DNA of 64,000 bases, taken from Eledone cirrhosa. Its lineage: Eukaryota. A program made the position numbers and the translations under genes. Positions 10,669 to 59,833 of this stretch are shown here, in pieces. The notes under the pieces were generated by a model that worked only from the letters and a program-made list of their open reading frames with translations, searched no databases and had not been told where the DNA came from. The DNA lies in the NCBI GenBank assembly GCA_964016885.1, contig OZ024745.1, positions 93,186,001 through 93,250,000 of the forward strand, given 5' to 3'. Position 1 is the stretch's first letter, and every line of letters begins with the position of its first letter.

Positions 10669-10670
<2 letters not shown>

Positions 10671-11030
10671 AGTGGGTCTAACTAGGAGTTACTGCAGGTT
10701 CACCCGGATGAGCACTCGATGTTTAGGTTCACTTCTGTGATGATGTGTAGAGCTATACAGAGTGTTATATATAGAAAGGATAAAAAGGACGATTGATTAT
10801 TCCTGCATTGCATTTATTGATAGGTGACGCGCGTTTCGCCACTGATCAGCTCAAGGTTCGATCTATATCGATCCTACCCGACTCAATAATCGGCAGCTCG
10901 ACGGACCCTCTTAAAATGCATTGAGTCGGGTAGGATCGATATAGATCAAACATTGAGCTGATCAGTGGCGAAACGCGCGTCACCTATCAATAAATGCAAT
11001 GAAGGAATAATCAATCGTCCTTTTTATCCT

Positions 11031-11040
<10 letters not shown>
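10669..11040 (-). mobile_element. Penelope-like pLTR / retrozyme-type element with an inverted duplication, inserted in (TA)n
   Basis: Inverted arms 10767-10887 and 10920-11040. Contains a hammerhead-like motif and is homologous to 26862-27170. Confidence 0.7.
10822..10910 (-). ncRNA. Type I hammerhead ribozyme motif with a degenerate core
   Basis: Minus strand reads GGGT-CCGTCGA-GCTGCCGATTA...TGATCAGTGGC-GAAAC-GCGC-GTC-ACCT. The core differs from CTGACGA at two positions. Confidence 0.6.
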
Positions 11041-13761: not shown

Positions 13762-14190
13762 GTAAGTTATATTGTTAATTTATATATGATTTTTAAAATT
13801 TATATTAACTATTTTTTTTTCAGTTCGTTATAACATGCTTATAATATTGGTTGTATCATATTTACTTGTATATTTGTCCATATTATTGTTTGTTTTATGT
13901 TAGATTATTTTATTATTATTATGTGAGACTATTTGTATGTAATATTTAATTTTTATTAATTCAACTATAACAATTATTATGTAAAATATATTTATTTAAT
14001 ATTGATTGTTTTTTGTAGTTGTTTAAATTAAAAGTCTGAAAATATTTTTATACATCTTACAATAATATTTATAAGATCATTTATAAAATAACAATTATAT
14101 AAACTAATTACATTACAACGATAATTTATTATTAATATATATCATGTTTAACTAGAGTTATTACAAGCGTTGCCTTAAAAAAAATATTAA

Positions 14191-14635
14191 ACTAGACCTG
14201 AAAAATGCGCAAGCTCAAAAGAGCCACAGAATGTTATAATAAACCTTCAAAAGTGTGGGACTAGAGTTGTTGCTCAAAAATATTGTAATCATTATCTATT
14301 GTACACTCTGTGGCATCCTTTTATAAAAAAGAGACTCATAACGAACTCAAGACGACACGATAATTATTTAAGTGAATTTATAATATAGAATTCGGTTTAA
14401 GTGCATTTCGTATTAATCATTACTAAACATCTAATATGAGATATTGAACATTAGCTTAAATAATTATCGTGTCGTCTTGAGTTTGTTATGAGTCTCTTTT
14501 CATAAAAGGATGCCACAGAGTGTATGATAGATAATGATTACAATATTTTTGAGCAACAACTCTAGTCCCACACTTTTGAAGGTTTATTATAACATTCTGT
14601 GGCTCTTTTGAGCTTGCACATTTTTCAGGTCTAGT
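14191..14635. repeat. Long palindrome/foldback with arms of about 181 bp (14191-14372 and 14455-14635) and an 82-bp spacer
   Basis: The arms are reverse complements with only a handful of differences. No convincing TSD. Confidence 0.9.
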
Positions 14636-16699
14636 AATATTATTTACAGGCATAGTTCTTGAGGATAAGCAGTTCAAAAAGTGTTATTTTGGCAGGAGCG
14701 CTTAGAGAAGTTGATCCATGATGGAGGCATATATATATATATCATCATCATCATCTTCGTTTAACGTCTATCTTCCACGCTAGCATGGGTTAGACGGGAG
14801 TTGTCCCACTTGAGGCAAGGTTGGTCGGGTGACCATGTCTCGCTCATATAGGACTATCTGGCAGATTTTCTACAGCTGGATGCCCTTCCTAACACCAATC
14901 ACATTTACAGTGTGGAACTGGGAACTTTTTACCGTGTTACCTACACGGCCACATTACAGCGTGGACTGTGTGTTTTTGGTCGTGACACCTACACAATCTC
15001 GATCTCATTTTCTCATATATATATATATATACTTATATATATATACTTATATATATATATATACACACATTTGCTGTGTGTGTATGATAAAAAGCATCCG
15101 GCTGTCAAAAATAGTCTTAAAACATCCTGTCCAACCTATCTGGCATGGAAAACTGAATGTAAAAATGATGATGATGACAAGGATGATGATGATGATGATA
15201 TATATGTCTGTGTGTCTGTATATACATATGAATTTTCAAATGAGAAGTAAAATGAAAAACATGTATCAGTGTTTATTCCTCATTTAAAACTGAAGTTTTT
15301 CTCTCTGGCTATTCTAAGTTTCTCATTTATATTCACTGATCTCACCTATTAAGATTCAAAAGTTTTTTTTTAGATATTCTTTTAGATATTTTCCTCATTC
15401 ACCATTCATTATTTGATTTAGTATGATGTAACATGCAATTTATTATAACATCTGTCGCAGAATGCTAGACAGTATGTCGGATTATATTCTATTAGTGGTG
15501 GGATTGAGCAGTTTAAATTTGGTCTCTATAACAGCTTGATAAGGATTACTGTTATAATTATTGCCAATGTGAAGACAAAAGACACATTCTGAGAGTAAAT
15601 ACTCAGGATAGACAATAAGCATTTATAATGTAAATTGTTAACAAAAGGTCTTATCACTATGAGACAATATATAAAAAATATTTTCACAACAAAACATTTA
15701 ATTTTAAACACACACACACACACACATACTCACACACACACACACCACATATATATGTGTGCGTGCGGGTTCCTGTAGAAGTCATTTCTATAGAAAATAT
15801 GATATATATATATAGGAAGGTCAACCAGCCTTATATATATATATCATCATCATTATCACCATTTTACATCCGTTCTTCCACGCTAGCATGGGTTAGACGG
15901 GTTGTCCTGTTGTGGGTAGTGTCCAGTTGGCTGACTTTGTCTTGCTCATACGGGAACTGAGTCTGGCTTGATTTCTACAGCTGGATGCCCTTCCTAACAC
16001 CAACCTCATTTACAGTGAATTCTGGGTGCTTTTTTTCCGTGGTGCCTACACATCCACTATACAGTGGGAGGGGGATGGGGGCATATTGTCTATATGCTTC
16101 AGCTTTGGCTTGTATCCATGGGAAGTCGGGTCTTCTGTATTACATCATCACGTATATCTTCTTGGGACGACCAGCGTTTCTTGCTCCATGAAAGGCATCA
16201 AGAAGGGCATCTAGCCGTATATATATATATAGAGAGAGATTTTTTATTATGTAATAAACAACACAATATAATTATTTCATTACTGTTAGAATTGTCTAAC
16301 TTTGTGAAACCTTGGGTAATGGAATAATTATATTGCGTTGTTTATTACATAATTAAATAGCTCTGTACTATGCAGAGAGCACTCTTCTTTCTTTTACCTT
16401 TTCCATGGAAATACTTAACATATATATATATATAGAGCGAGATAGGAAGGGCATCCAGCCATAGAAAACCAGCCAAAAAATCTCCTCTATGAGCGAGACA
16501 TGGTCACCTGACCTAACTTGCCTCTAAATGAGACAAACTTGCCTAACCCATCCTAGCATAGAAGATAGACATTAAATGATGATGATAAGCAAAGTGGCTA
16601 ATATTGGGACGCATACATTTCAAATATATATGTATGTAATTGTGTGTGTGTATGTATATACATTACAACTTCCTTAGTGTTGGGAATCTACACAATAAA

Positions 16700-18102: not shown

Positions 18103-18765
18103 GGCATAGGTTAAGAATAACGTCCTCGAAACTGAAAGTAGGTTTTCTGACACGTGAATGTGTTTTTTTTTTTTTTTACATTGAAATTTACGATACACTC
18201 TTTGTTTATTTACAACAGGTCTCTATAGTGATATGGTGTTAGTTAGTATTGCGTGTGTGATTATTTTCTCTTATATATATGTGTGTGGGTGTGTATATGT
18301 GTGTATATATATGTGTGTCTGTATGTATATATATATGTGTGTTTGTATATATATATGTGTTTATGTCATCATCATCGTTTAGATGTTTTTGTAATATCTT
18401 GCCAAAGTTGGCACCAACTATAAACAAATTAAGTCCGGGTCATAAGAAGGACAGAGAATGATAAGGGATTTGGGTAAAAACATCTAAACGATGATGATGA
18501 CACAAACACATATATATATACAAACACACATATATATATACATACAGACACACATATATATACACACATATACACACCCACACATATATATATATAAGAG
18601 AAAATAATCACACACGCAATACTAATTAACACCATATCACTATAGAGACCTGTTGTAAATAAACAAATAGTGTATCGTAAATTTCAATGTAAAAAAAAAA
18701 ACAAACACATTCACTTGTCAGAAAACCTACTTTCAGTTTCGAGGGCGTTATTCTTAACCTATGCC
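18103..18765. mobile_element. Mutator-like (MULE/Foldback) non-autonomous element with TIRs of about 290 bp
   Basis: Arms 18103-18390 and 18476-18765 start GGCATAGGTTAAG. Exact 9-bp TSD GATAACAAT at 18094-18102 and 18766-18774. Confidence 0.88.
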
Positions 18766-24138: not shown

Positions 24139-26861
24139 CTGTGTGTGTGTGTGTGTGTGTGTCTAACATTTATTTTCCTTTGTTGACAAATCAATGGAAT
24201 TAATTTTTTTATTGTCATTGTCCATTTACTTTTGTAAAAAAATGTAATAAATTTGGTAGTAATGTAGATAGACCGAAATAAATTAAATTTTCTGAATTCG
24301 TTAAATGCCGGCTATATGCTTTCTCCCTAAAGGAAAAAAACAAAAACAAAAAAAAAAGACCACAACGTTTCTAATAAGATGTAAGTAGATTATAATATTT
24401 GTTTTTTTTATAATGTATGGGTTAACATGTAGGCCATGATAAATGTCAAATATTGCTGTGTTAGGCGTTTACAAAAATTACTGCCCTCATTTTTATTTAT
24501 CCATTTCTAAAAAAAAAGGAAATACATATTATATATATGTATATCTTCATTCCTAAGTGTTTGTTCGGAAGTTCAAAAAATTAAATTGCCCATAGCCGAC
24601 TTAACTACATTATTTAATAAACAAAGGAGTGTAAGAAAAAAAAAATGTTCTGTTAATTAAGATAAGCAATTGATGATGGTAGTAAGGAGCCTTAAATAAT
24701 TTGTGAATGTTGTAAGAGACCTTGCCACATCCCGACATTGACTCATCTACACTCACTTACAGATTTACCTTTACATCTCTCAGGTACTTTTATATCGCAT
24801 TTTTTTTCTCATTTTTGTTGTAATAATGATAATAATTATTATCACTTTAGGAAAAGTGTCTCCAGGCTTTAAAGTGTATTTTATTTATCTAATTTTACAC
24901 GCAAAACCATTCATAATCTATCTGTAAATTCGCCTTTGTCTAAAGTCGACTACTATGTATGTAATACAGACTGACTTCCTCTTAACATCTCTTACATCCT
25001 AAAATCATTATTATTTAGATTTATTATATATCTAAATATAATATTTCTTTGTTCTCATTACATTCAACACATATATTCCATATTTTCAAATGTTATTTTT
25101 ATTTCGTTTATATTTCAAAACCTGTTTTCATTATTTGTTTGTTCTTATAAGTGCCTGTCTTGTCAGATAACGCTTGTAATATTTGTATTTATTTAAATTT
25201 TCTTTGTATGTTCAAAATTATTCACATTTAAAACTAATATTTAACCTTTTTAACATCACATTCTAAATCAGACATTTAGTACGACGTACGAAACCTGATA
25301 TGTCAGAATTATTTTTTCAATAGCTTCAAACATTAGTTAAATTTAGGTATAAGGAGATCTAATTGTCATATTTGGGAATTTCAAATATATATATATATAT
25401 ATAAAACTAATACTTCTCTACGATAATGTTTCTAAATGCATTTGTCCACTTTTCCCCCCGCCTCCAGGGGTTTTACAGGTATTGATCAAGTAAAATTATG
25501 GTCATTTATGCGTTCATTTCAAATGGAAAATAAGCCGCCGAATTATTATTTATTTTAAAGAAATGTTACTTTTCTCTTTTATATTTGTCATATACTTATT
25601 TAAGAAATACATAACTTTCATATTTCAAACTCCGCATGTTTTAACATTACATTTCAGAATAGTTCAATAATGAAAGCTATCAGAACATGGTTTAAATTAA
25701 GCTATAATAAATATGGTATCAACACATCACATTATCATTTACTAAAATTCCCCACCTAGAGGTTATCCCTTAAATAATAATAGTTTATCATTTCATATAA
25801 TTACCTCTCTTTGGTTTTACCATTTTCTTCTCTTCCAAATTTTTATCTAATTAGTTTATTTATTTTCCTGCAAATTCTTCAATATTAACTCGGGAAAAGA
25901 AATTACATCATTATCATGGTGGATTGGCAGTATCGGTAGAGGGACGGACGCCATGCTTTCCAGCATAGTTACGTCCCTTTACGATCTGAGTTCAAATTCC
26001 GCCTTTCATCCTTACGGGGTCGATAAAATAAAGTACCAGTAATGCACTGGGTAATTGCTGGCCTTGTGCTTAAAGTAGAAGCAATTATCATTTAACATTT
26101 ACTCTCCCTGCTAGCATAAGTTGGACAGGTTGTCACAGACCAAAGTACCAAATCGGAGGCACTGATCTCTTAGATTTGGCAGGGGTCGCATTTCGCTTAC
26201 TCTGTATTGCACATTTTATTGTGGCACTAACACGAGAGTTGTCATGTCTTTGACACAATGTAAGAGTCCTCTTTACTCCTTGTTTTCTACAGCTGGATGC
26301 TCTTATACACACACACACATATATATGTATATATATACACACACACAGAGGGTTGGGGCGGGGGATTCTTCAGTTGTATCAAAGACATGACAACTTCCTT
26401 AGTGCTGGTTCCATATACAATGCCCTCAGTGCACTTTTTAGACTGCGGAAGTGTATGTAAGATGCAAATGTATCCTTGCTAGCAGGGAAAATGACATTAA
26501 ATGATGATATATATCATTGTTTAATGTCCATTTTCCCCTGCTTGCATGCTCCGATGGATGTGTAATAGTAATGGTAAAGTTTAAATAAACTGAGAGAAAC
26601 TAGGCATAAAAAGGGTCAGATGCAGTGTGAAGGAGAGGAGATTAGGGTGGTATGTACATGTGATGCATATAGAGGATGGTAGCTGTATAAAATGGTGCCG
26701 GGTGTTTGAAGTTGAAGCATGAGATGAAGTGATAAAAGCTGACCATGCACAATTAAACCTATCAAAGGTGATGACAGGATTGAGATCTCTAGCGCTATGT
26801 AGTACTGTAGAAGACCTGCCATCCATTTCCCCTGCTAGCAAGGATATATATATATATATAA

Positions 26862-27170
26862 TAATAATACAAGGACAATTTGTTAAGCCTTCATTACGTT
26901 TATTGATTGGTGATGCGCGTTTCGCTATTGATCACCTGAAGGTTCTGATCTGTATCAATCTGGCCTGACTCCGGAATCAAAAGCTCGTCAGACCTCTGCT
27001 CTTGTAAATAGCGTGCGTCACTAATCAATAAACGTAACGAAGGCTTAACAAATCGTCCTTATATTATTATATTTACTCTGTTTAGCTCTATACCTCGCTA
27101 CTGATGTGTACCTAAACATCGAGTGCTCACCTGGGTGAACCTACAGTAACTTCACGTTACACTACCTGGA
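26862..27170. mobile_element. Second Penelope-like pLTR / retrozyme-type element with an inverted duplication, in (TA)n
   Basis: Arms about 26862-26919 and 27012-27071. The tail CCTAAACATCGAGTGCTCA..GGGTGAACCT.CAGTAACT...CTGGA(TA)n matches the 10669 copy. Confidence 0.7.
26909..26994 (-). ncRNA. Type I hammerhead ribozyme motif with intact CUGACGA and GAAA core boxes
   Basis: Minus strand reads GGT-CTGACGA-GCTTTTGATT...GATCAATAGC-GAAAC-GCGC-ATC-ACC. Stems I and II pair. The cleavage triplet is AUC here and GUC in the other arms and copies. Confidence 0.72.
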
Positions 27171-30100
27171 TATATATATATAGTTAAATAATAAATTTCA
27201 AGTTTTTGAAAATTATTTCTTAAGATGGTATTAAGGTAGAGTGTAATGTGCATTTCATCATGGCACCGTTGTCTAGATTAACAGAGTAGGGAAAACGGGA
27301 TGATCATATCTTTTTCAAGGAAAGATATGATCAATAATTACAACTACTTGTCAAAGCAGACCACTGGAAGCTTATCTTTTACTGATGATTTAGAAATTAT
27401 TATGTAACAATTAGATGTATTTTTATTGGATTATAGATTTATTTTGTTTTGGTACAAGGTCAGTTTTTGTTGGAGGAGCGATGAATTTAGTTGATTGAAT
27501 GAAAAACAATGATACAAGGTGAAGTAAAAACATCCAGATGGCATTTTCTTGTCTCAGCAATATCTAGTTTTTAGTTAGATTAAAAATAGTAATCTATAAA
27601 AATGAGTCTGTTTCTTCCATCTATATTGTTCAATGATTTCTTGGATGTTTGGTCCATGTGATATTTATAATTTAAAATAATACTATTACTGGAGGCTCAT
27701 GGATGCTACCCAACCATCTTACTCAGGGTCAAAACCTAGTTGTTTTTGCTTGTAAAATACGTCAGCAATTCTTTCATGAGTTCGGCTGGTTTTGTTTGGA
27801 GATACAGCAGGATCAATTGGAGACAGTTGCTTCTGACAGGATCTGCTGGAAGGCATGCTTGAAAACTCTGCTCCTATGGCCCCCACCCCAGGAATAAGTG
27901 GGCAAAGAAGACTATTACTGGGTTGACAGACTTACCAAGCATGTACAAGAGTCAATTTATACCTATATCCTCCCCATAAATCCATGGTCTTGAACCAATG
28001 TAAGAGATCATTTATTATTGTATACCTTTCAACAGTTATATTTGTTTTATTTTTTCCTACTGCTACTCGGTCTGCTAGAATAGCAACCAGTTCTTACTCA
28101 AATCAAACCTTCACTATCCTAAACAAGGAAGAACACATTAGGCAATGTGGTCCTAGATGCTGTCTAAAAGCTGGAATGCTTTTGATTATAGGTTTGCTCC
28201 ATTAAGGTTGGCATACTACTACTGCTATACTACCGCCACCACCACTACTACTTCACAATTAGGTGATTAATAGTGAGAGGACTATGTTTATTGAAATAAA
28301 ATTAGTCTAACAATCATTTTGGCCTGTTATCTAGAAACTACTACTTGGTTTTTCATAAAAAGAAAATGGAAGCTATATCATTTCAAAAATACAGGAGAAT
28401 ATTAAAAAAATTTTTTAGCAGCTTTGTTGGTATTAAGTACAAGTACAAATTATTATTATTCCCACCAGTAATGCACTGGGGTAATTGCTGGCCTTGTGCC
28501 AAAAGTAGAAACAATTATTACTATTGGCAGTAATGGTAGAGGGTCGGACACCATGCTTTGACGCATAGAGTTACGGCCCTTGCCATTCTGAGTTCAAATC
28601 CCGCCGAGGTTAACTTTGCCTTTCATCCTTACGGGGTCGATAAAATGAAGTACCAGTAATACACTGGGGTTGTTTTGATTGACTTTTCCTTCCCTTTCAA
28701 ATTGCTGGCCTTGTTCATAAAGTAGAAACAAGGTGAATTGGCAGTATCGGTAGAGGGTCGGACGCCATGCTTTCCAGCATAGTTACGTCCCTTTACGATC
28801 TGAGTTCAAATCCCGCCGAGGTTGACTTTGCCTTTCATCCTTACGGGGTCGATAAAATGAAGTACCAGTAATGTACTGGGTAATTGCTGGCCTTATGCCT
28901 AAAGTAGAAACAATTATTAATATAAGATGACAAAGATTGCATATATGACTTTCAAGGAATATTCAGTATCCCTGCCAAATTGAGATAATATTGATACAAG
29001 TCCTTCTTGTATATTTAAAGTAATATTATGTCAAGGATTTACATATAAAAGCATCCTTCCTAGTTTCAATCAGTTTGCCATCAAATGACATTAAACCATA
29101 TTTAGATTGTATGAGAGGGTTTCTCTCACATGGCAGTTCATAGTGGAGACAGATTCTTCTCTGTTAAACCAGTTTACAAAAGAGTGGAATTTGGTAGAGT
29201 TTTTCATTAACTGAATAATAATTTTGTATTCTTAATGGAAAATACTGCCACCTGACTCAATGACATAAGTTTGATAAGTTTTGATCTTGAACAATGTTGA
29301 CCAATGGATTTTTGATAATTTGGAAGAATGTTGAGTTCTTAATTTATTGAAACAAAAGTATGTTTTCAAAATCCACATCAGAATAATCCTACATGTTGTG
29401 TAGCTCTAGGTCAGCCTCAGTTAAGCAGGCCTGTTGTTTAGGACCCTTGACAACCTCTCTAGTGATGGTGCTATGATAAAATGCACTTGGTAGAGTATAA
29501 GAATATTGGTGAGCTGCAGGTTCTTGATTCATCAGAGCACTTGGCAAAGTGTGGGAATATATGTAAGAGAGATGCTAGCCTTCCCTGCCTATATGAAAGA
29601 TCAGTAGCTTTGTTTCCGTACTAAGTCTGTAGGGACCCATGCTAGCAGAGAAAACAGACATTAAATGATGATGCTTGCTGTGTATGTTGTGAACATTATA
29701 GAGATTGTTGAATGTGGTAGTTGGTTGTATCTGAGTGTCTTTTGTGTTGCTAGTAAGAAGAGGGACATTGCTATAAGTCTTGTTGTAGAGCCAAGTATCT
29801 AGTGTGGTGAAGTTGTGTGGCTATGTCTGGAGGATGTGACTCGCATTGAGTCTGGTGTTATCGTGCATATGAGCCTGTGTATGTCATGTAGTCCTAGGTC
29901 AACCCTGATATAGCAGACCTATGATTAAAAGTATTTTAGGCATGATCATTTCATTTTAAAAAAATATATATTTAGAACAACAATATCTAATGTGTCCTTA
30001 AGATTGTAGAGTTTTATTGTAGGGAGATCTGGCTGCTATTTTTAGTATGTTGATCAACCATGTAGTGTTTCTCTTTAATATTTACTAGGTGGTTATTTTA

Positions 30101-59496: not shown

Positions 59497-59833
59497 GAAA
59501 TAGAAATAGAAGCTTTCACTGTATTTTTTACTAAAGACATTTTAGCCTGATAGTGGGGGTTAGGGAAATGGAAAAAGATGAGTATTGACATACATGGGAG
59601 TCGAACCCACATCTTTGGTTTCCATTACACCAACTAGCACAGTGCTGTGGATAACCAAAGATGTGGCTTTGACTCCCACGTATGTCAATACTCATCTTTT
59701 TCCATTCCTGAGAGGGTTCTAACCCCCCCCCCCCCCCCCCCCCCCCGTTTATCAGGCTAAAATTTCTTTAGTCAAAAATATGGCGAAAGTTTCTGTTTCT
59801 ATTTTCAAACTCGCTCGCTGTTTCAAAACATAC
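59497..59833. mobile_element. tRNA-derived element inserted as an inverted duplication with a 13-bp direct repeat
   Basis: Arms 59497-59624 and 59648-59807, flanked by TTAACTCTTGTAT at 59484-59496 and 59834-59846. B-box GGTTCGACTCC. Partial relative at about 54490-54560. Confidence 0.75.

Follow-up and report, generated by a model that had tools for sequence, protein, structure and literature searches.

A hammerhead-bearing palindrome of Eledone cirrhosa as a probable 5′-truncated, head-to-head insertion of a Penelope-like element

The minus strand of a small palindrome lying within a (TA)n tract of the Eledone cirrhosa genome can be read as a hammerhead ribozyme (HHR). This raised the questions of which kind of element had left the palindrome and of whether its ribozyme matters for cutting. 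The sequence-only reading had taken the palindrome for the best-preserved copy of a non-autonomous retroelement family. The analysis covered the window, that is, the whole 64,000-nt stretch of DNA, and further loci fetched from the genome of 3.0 Gb.

The palindromic insertions of the window

The insertion is bordered by (TA)n target tracts at 26844–26860 on the left and 27170–27182 on the right, and consists of two arms placed head-to-head. The short-ended (S) arm on the minus strand (26861–27007) is the 3′ end of a 5′-truncated element; it holds the whole hammerhead fold and stops at an inner start site. The long-ended (L) arm on the plus strand (27012–27169) begins in stem III, is without the core, reads GTC at 27017–27019, and carries a tail of about 100 nt (about 27072–27169), ending CTGGA, to an outer start site. 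Both arms were delimited by BLAST against the family unit. The junction of the arms (27008–27011) is at a position private to this copy, as determined by comparison of loci.

The type I hammerhead topology spans 26994–26909 of the minus strand and was established from the sequence and from constrained folds of the subfamily masters. Stem I is formed by GGT (26994–26992) and ACC (26911–26909), the core CTGACGA lies at 26991–26985, and GAAAC (26923–26919) is followed by the palindromic GCGC (26918–26915) and by ATC (26914–26912). Between A9 and G12 lie 61 nt, the stem II region, closed by GCTTTTGATT (26984–26975) and GATCAATAGC (26933–26924), and the predicted cleavage position is between 26912 and 26911. 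The hammerhead topology, the palindromic stem III, the inverted arm, the tail, and the (TA)n flanks described in the sequence-only reading were all found in place. The arm matches CUGANGA/GAAA/NUH letter for letter, but with a C15.2–A16.2 mismatch, and the master of its subfamily reads CCGACGA. AUC stands at 26914–26912 in place of the family GUC, a CpG transition at 26914 having broken the C15.2–G16.2 pair in this copy. The earlier remark that AUC opposed C15.2 here and that GUC was the family triplet was therefore correct, as GUC is present in the subfamily consensus and in all six masters.

The description of this copy as the best preserved did not hold. The S arm nests in subfamily A in the tree and is 93% identical to the A consensus, and five of its nine substitutions are CpG transitions, U4 and G16.2>A among them. 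The T at 26990, which is U4, most likely arose by CpG decay of the master core CCGACGA, as indicated by the pattern-match tallies, the masters, and the consensus comparison. The canonical CUGACGA of the window copy is probably an accident of this decay, to judge from the sequence. A search of the window with Rfam, proposed as a check of the hammerhead, returned 71 matches with E ≤ 1, none of them a hammerhead. The palindrome as a whole has a fold energy of −131.9 kcal/mol (z = −11); the minimum-energy structure of the isolated 96-nt hammerhead is not of hammerhead topology (z = −1.3).

A second head-to-head insertion lies at 10669–11038. Its L arm on the minus strand (10669–10919) was placed in the young subfamily C by subfamily comparison and has the core CCGTCGA at 10904–10898; on the plus strand, an S arm without the core, then (TA)n, occupies 10920–11038. 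This insertion shares subfamily C with 39 further scored loci (99% over 148 nt) and is the more informative of the two window copies. Three more long palindromes of the window, at 14179–14645, 18103–18765, and 59498–59804, are without a hammerhead motif.

Copies in the genome and the parent element

The genome-wide copy check was run with exact patterns. The 31-nt pattern around the A/B core gave 555 matches in the genome, and the patterns of C and D1 gave 470 and 345, respectively; each reversed control gave 0. The total is at least 1,370 arms, and several thousand are likely to be present, the first look having returned 4,203 candidates.

The ends of the arms were determined at loci matching a 33-nt pattern that both arm types contain; 70 were fetched and 1 duplicate was dropped, leaving 69. 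The 3′ ends of the arms fall at two sites, S at approximately 55 nt past the cleavage position and L approximately 100 nt beyond S. An inverted partner was found in 39 of the 69 loci (34 L+S, 2 L+L, 1 S+S, and 2 unclassified), and an adjacent inverted arm was missing in the other 30; by eye, the single S+S pair is an L arm with a deletion. L+S pairs accounted for 34 of the 37 classifiable pairs (p = 1e-7 against 50%), for 20 of 21 independent pairs among D1 and C loci in a hand count, and for 14 of 15 among the young top matches. This pairing of one of each end fits priming from both strands, and it bears out the inverted pLTR-type architecture noted before. A TA run of ≥8 was present within 30 nt of 34 of 58 S ends and 24 of 34 L ends, i.e., of 58 of 92 ends, against a background of 11% at random places; the earlier proposal of (TA)n targeting was thus supported.

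The 5′ ends of the arms are spread over unit positions −219 to +127, and the junctions differ in every copy of the 69 loci. Thus, the copies are independent truncations. Junction microhomology was not significantly above the null (13 of 37 against 23.5%, p = 0.16), and the joining step therefore gained no support from it. Nor do the 5′ ends clearly accumulate at the cleavage site, which was the end of 2 of 106 A arms, 1 of 30 C loci, and 3 of 30 D1 loci, with two duplicates among these 3. Past L, the template continues as ATATTTAG into the 5′ UTR, with an ATG 44 nt on (L238 and L249); both reverse transcription starts are therefore internal. The S site also lies within TA-like sequence, and 4–5 nt of TA-like letters are found at both start sites.

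Further arrangements were observed at these sites. In nine loci (L119, L130, L133, L138, L147, L155, L161, L170, and L172), long arms are split at TATTATTA of the S site by an insert of 100–250 bp. The insert is SINE-like in several loci, and the site resembles the target of another retroposon. One locus (L132) holds three tandem partial units without the core, with short TA runs between them.

When copies picked by the core pattern were followed upstream, 6 of 30 continued in common sequence, and an endonuclease (EN) remnant was found upstream in one locus (L061). Among 22 long loci, L097 and L098 show the reverse transcriptase (RT), EN, UTR, and hammerhead arm in colinear order, and L098 and L099 carry an inverted arm where their 5′ end is truncated, which reproduces the window layout on a larger scale. 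In 6 of the 20 loci picked by similarity to the RT of the young subfamily, the ORF is present from its first 66 residues onward, and in 11 the ORF is followed by the 3′ unit. L238 shows, in order, a tail piece, an ATG, an open stretch of 667 residues, a frameshifted EN, a 2-kb UTR, and the unit, spanning approximately 4.9 kb from tail piece to unit; L234 shows an inverted arm, a direct pLTR, the body, and the unit. A pLTR in partial tandem, an optional inverted 5′-truncated copy, and a tail at one end were accordingly observed (L234, L238, L249, L361, and the L+S pairs). The youngest subfamily, C, has near-complete ORFs, and the full ORF without interruption was absent from all 40 long C loci examined.

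The encoded protein carries the motifs RWR, DKT, GLYRDD, CxCX5C (CNCKKRDEC or CNCKKPEEC), CRLC (CxxC), and CRH (CxH), with RWR and ADKTG present in L238 and L251. Its predicted structure (pLDDT 76) had TERT as the best Foldseek match (E = 1.4e-8, TM about 0.4). Pfam matches were weak and under the curated cut-offs (GIY-YIG, E = 0.003–0.006), and a profile search against the sequences of solved structures gave 0 matches. A telomerase-like RT and a GIY-YIG EN are thus encoded in a single ORF, with the GIY-YIG Pfam match below the cut-off. A protein relative was found in Argonauta hians at 42% identity.

Since longer copies join the ORF, the 3′ UTR, and the ribozyme unit, a separate non-autonomous family was rejected. 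The Penelope-like origin suggested by the sequence-only reading stands, as the hammerhead unit terminates RT+EN elements (L097, L098, and L238); its non-autonomous nature does not, given this terminal position and the scatter of 5′ ends and junctions. On these comparisons of sequence, the window feature is probably a 5′-truncated, head-to-head insertion of an RT and GIY-YIG Penelope-like element (PLE) with Hydra-clade motifs.

Other coding remnants were encountered among the fetched loci. L093 was considered as a link of D1 to a coding body and rejected, its body grouping with A/B in the RT/EN tree though a D1 unit comes next. Beside subfamily C copies, L220, L228, and L229 have open frames of 270–500 residues with a different RT (YVDD motif), likely of another PLE clade. 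At G000:C12:17.03–17.49 Mb, eight near-identical EN remnants lie approximately 60 kb apart with flanks 99% alike, forming a large tandem duplication.

The described Hydra clade has a single ORF of RT and C-terminal GIY-YIG, a CxCX5C linker, CxxC/CxH, RWK-like and DKT motifs, and insertion into (TA)n (PMC8557442). The present element resembles members such as Hydra-1_Obim of Octopus bimaculoides, as presented in the sections of Craig et al. (2021) on this clade, in ORF layout, motifs, and (TA)n target, and also in having an HHR near the 3′ end and an inverted 5′-truncated copy at the 5′ end (PMC8557442). This likeness would rest on motifs, the reference Hydra RTs having been compared by eye. 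Unlike the clade as characterized in those sections, the element is approximately 4.9 kb long with a 2-kb 3′ UTR, against under 3 kb, a figure worded there as a tendency, and its tail is approximately 100 nt against 30–40 nt (PMC8557442). In the Hydra rows of File S2 of the same paper, the distance from A9 to G12 is, by eye, at most approximately 26 nt, compared with 61 nt here, and all cores are CTGANGA, unlike five of the six masters described below. The octopus Hydra member of that supplement has a short canonical HHR. Among the present subfamilies, a canonical HHR is a feature of D1 only and is absent from A, to which the window copy belongs, and from B, D2, D3, and C.

The hammerhead core and fold across subfamilies

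The core of the subfamily masters reads CCGACGA in A/B, the canonical letters in the sister subfamily D1, CCGACGA in D2, and CCGTCGA in D3 and C. Position 4 is therefore non-canonical in five of the six masters, and position 6 also in two (D3 and C), contrary to the conserved CUGANGA core on which the sequence-only reading had relied. For A/B, the first 100 of the 555 matches were tallied by hand with the pattern free at the core, and C4 was found in 78 and T4 in 19. In the same tally, C7>T was seen in 19, G5>A in 13, G8>A in 11, and the non-CpG change C3>T in 2. As the frequency of U4 equals the rate of CpG decay, neutral CpG C7>T being also 19, the A/B master read CCGACGA. In C, 89 of the first 100 of 263 matches had the core CCGTCGA and 0 had A6 (hand tally), and C loci anchored downstream of the core had CCGTCGA in 24 of 27 complete cores. 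T4 was present in 27 of the 28 D1 loci reaching the core. D2 and D3 fall between D1 and C; they differ from each other at just two places across a 150-nt region, one of them being A6, and both were amplified. A displaced or spare CTGANGA was found on the sense strand of none of 6 long C copies.

CpG decay was seen in 62 of 400 site-reads of the A/B pattern matches and in 7 of 400 of the C matches; thus, C is much younger than A/B. The age order rests on CpG decay, the divergence figures of C and D1 being biased low as their loci are top BLAST matches. Short, canonical-looking hammerheads were found by eye downstream of the ORF in four of six metagenome relatives, and the canonical core was accordingly taken as the outgroup state. 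The canonical core of D1 may be a survivor or a revertant, and both readings stand. A subfamily root on the C branch, obtained from RT/EN fragments, was discarded; it conflicts with the age order, and its rows were frameshifted and uneven. At G000:C3:300827657–300828167, a tandem array with a 48-bp period is built from the D1 core and the start of stem II.

The stems were kept across these core changes. For the 27 consensus pairs of stem II, comparison of the six masters revealed 2 compensatory and 5 one-sided changes; 6 of the 162 cells are unpaired. The masters also keep a distal stem I, with its register shifted in D3 and C. Stem covariation, named before as a check, was seen in the two compensatory changes, and six masters offer few independent covariation events. 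G8, G12, GAAAC, GCGC, and GUC are invariant in all six masters, and the invariance of G8, G12, GAAAC, and GUC also fits a catalytic requirement. The three stems around the core were found in the sequence, in the constrained folds, and in the two compensatory pairs; as a monomer, the hammerhead is not the minimum-energy fold, lying 5–11 kcal/mol above it in all six masters, D1 included. By analogy, such a position would be as expected of an HHR dependent on a dimer or a protein, of the kind treated in the relevant part of PMC4209133.

When 0.96 Mb of fetched loci were scanned with a descriptor, 109 canonical-core matches were returned, duplicates included, and several other hammerhead families there have a stem II region of 48–79 nt. 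The claim of an unusually long stem II consequently fails within this genome and holds in comparison with the Hydra-clade hammerheads, whose stem II is short in the table of Craig et al. Approximately 20 other canonical-core hammerhead families crowd the same TA tracts in the fetched loci, many as opposite-strand pairs. One palindromic insertion of another family (L049, approximately 520–760) has a hammerhead-like motif in which the core is lengthened by one base (CTGAAAGA) and stem II is long.

Proposed insertion by paired priming and possible role of the hammerhead

The explanation considered probable is that the window copy is a dead, 5′-truncated insertion of a PLE with Hydra-clade motifs, likely made by cutting of both strands of (TA)n and priming at two sites, and that its hammerhead, likely weak or silent in most subfamilies, was likely kept for its fold. 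The enzyme of the element would cut both strands of the (TA)n tract, by analogy with Poseidon in vitro, and each cut end would prime reverse transcription at one of two internal RNA sites, S or L. Pairing of the nicked TA end with the 4–5 nt of TA-like sequence at either start site would probably help. The two short cDNAs would then be joined to give the head-to-head palindrome. Catalysis would have been lost and the hammerhead fold retained.

Poseidon of Anolis carolinensis offers the closest parallel among the systems compared: according to the experiments of Frangieh et al. (2024) considered here, its protein cuts and extends both strands, two internal starts define the tail, and HHR mutants still insert in vitro, cleavage being unnecessary there (PMC11167929). 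Two internal starts, the use of both strands, an AT-rich target, and an HHR upstream of the starts are shared with the present element. The Poseidon starts fall within the ORF and are described in those sections as non-homologous to the cut DNA, whereas those of the present element lie upstream of the ATG and have 4–5 nt of TA-like sequence (PMC11167929). Unlike in those sections of the Poseidon study, the rule of one L and one S was counted here in genomic copies.

Other origins of the palindromes have to be weighed against paired priming. They could have been formed by fold-back of one cDNA, self-primed on the hammerhead stems, or by an independent second insertion beside the first in the TA tract. 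Fold-back would suit the many stems of the RNA and the position of some junctions within stem II (L006, L010, and L013); however, in many pairs, including the window copy, the S arm extends beyond the L arm on the 5′ side, and the L arm is the tail alone in L125, L126, L131, L156, L164, and L182. As the arms of many pairs do not contain each other, neither arm was copied from the other. Many families do sit side by side in the same tracts, but independent insertion predicts L+S in about half of the pairs, against the 34 of 37 seen, and TA left between the arms. Both variants are considered highly improbable. A similarly low probability was assigned to the sequence-only reading of a non-autonomous, retrozyme-like family of fixed structure, mobilized in trans and having an intact canonical ribozyme. 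Most copies are indeed short, with 62 of 69 anchored arms beginning within the last 270 nt; a few units of approximately 265 nt have (TA)n on both sides and a common 5′ end at ATATG (L114, L115, L124, and L140), and tandem partial units occur in L132. However, those tandem units are without the core, the 5′ ends range from −219 to +127 with every junction different, the hammerhead unit terminates RT+EN elements, and the master core is non-canonical. This reading is thus largely refuted. Metazoan non-LTR retrozymes, as presented in the corresponding sections of bioRxiv 10.64898/2026.07.22.740005, are likewise short non-coding HHR sequences related to PLE pLTRs, but they are tandem repeats with an HHR per unit, whereas dispersed truncation products of a coding element are found here; tandem units with a complete HHR and without a coding partner in cis were not what the family showed.

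The remaining alternative leaves the element and its insertion mechanism unchanged and concerns the ribozyme, the C4 and C4/U6 cores being working variants with slow cleavage, either in dimer form or aided by the ORF protein, for which the long stems I and II compensate. U4C lowers activity in vitro and still permits viroid infectivity, and changes at A6 lead to low hammerhead activity (PMC3088659); no data on the double change of U4C and A6 were found in the literature searched. Working variants would be consistent with the invariant residues and covarying stems of the six masters, with the infectivity of U4C viroids (PMC3088659), with the need of the Poseidon HHR for protein to cleave, as given in the cited part of PMC11167929, and with the slow, dimer-dependent action of PLE HHRs reported in that of PMC4209133. 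Against them stand the alteration of two invariant core positions in D3 and C, the hammerhead fold above the minimum in six masters, the canonical one too, and the absence of a 5′-end pile-up at the cleavage site in the A, C, and D1 sets. This alternative is considered unlikely. By analogy with viroid infectivity, weak activity of U4C in vitro need not mean silence in vivo.

Under the preferred explanation of paired priming with a weakened ribozyme, the hammerhead RNA likely matters more for shape than for cutting, as far as the sequences suggest. A bolder form of it is put forward tentatively, as conceivable and on balance doubtful. An autonomous PLE lineage would have kept amplifying while its core went from CUGACGA through CCGACGA to CCGUCGA, with the stems held by compensation. 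The fold would act as a scaffold without catalysis, to which protein binds or by which the two RT starts are positioned, and a typical insertion would proceed by paired priming at two TA-matching sites separated by 100 nt. Against this bolder reading speak the lack of variation at the remaining catalytic residues and the U4C viroid precedent.

The element class, the target, and the architecture are already known. Within the relevant part of Cervera and de la Pena (2014, PMC4209133), minimal PLE hammerheads are likewise of type I, with a palindromic minimal stem III and G10.1–C11.1, and occur mostly solitary or as opposite-strand pairs from truncated PLEs; the present hammerhead differs from them in its far longer stem II and in its variants, which are U4C and A6U and not their U3–A8 covariation. 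The function of PLE HHRs is described as unclear in the pertinent section of Craig et al., where HHRs are suggested as possible parasites of PLEs (PMC8557442). Literature searches found no paper on this PLE family or on the CCGUCGA core. PLE hammerhead variants were reportedly described by Lunse et al., and such cores may already appear there. Within the literature searched, the series of amplified masters whose cores depart stepwise from the canonical one seems to be new, as does the counted rule of one L and one S.

As this one lineage provides near-isogenic natural variants, the need for PLE hammerhead cutting could be tested with a few short transcripts. Moreover, the count of one L and one S constrains how the inverted repeats and tails of PLEs are formed. 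If the bolder reading were true, the lineage would be evidence from within a genome that PLEs can transpose without hammerhead cleavage.
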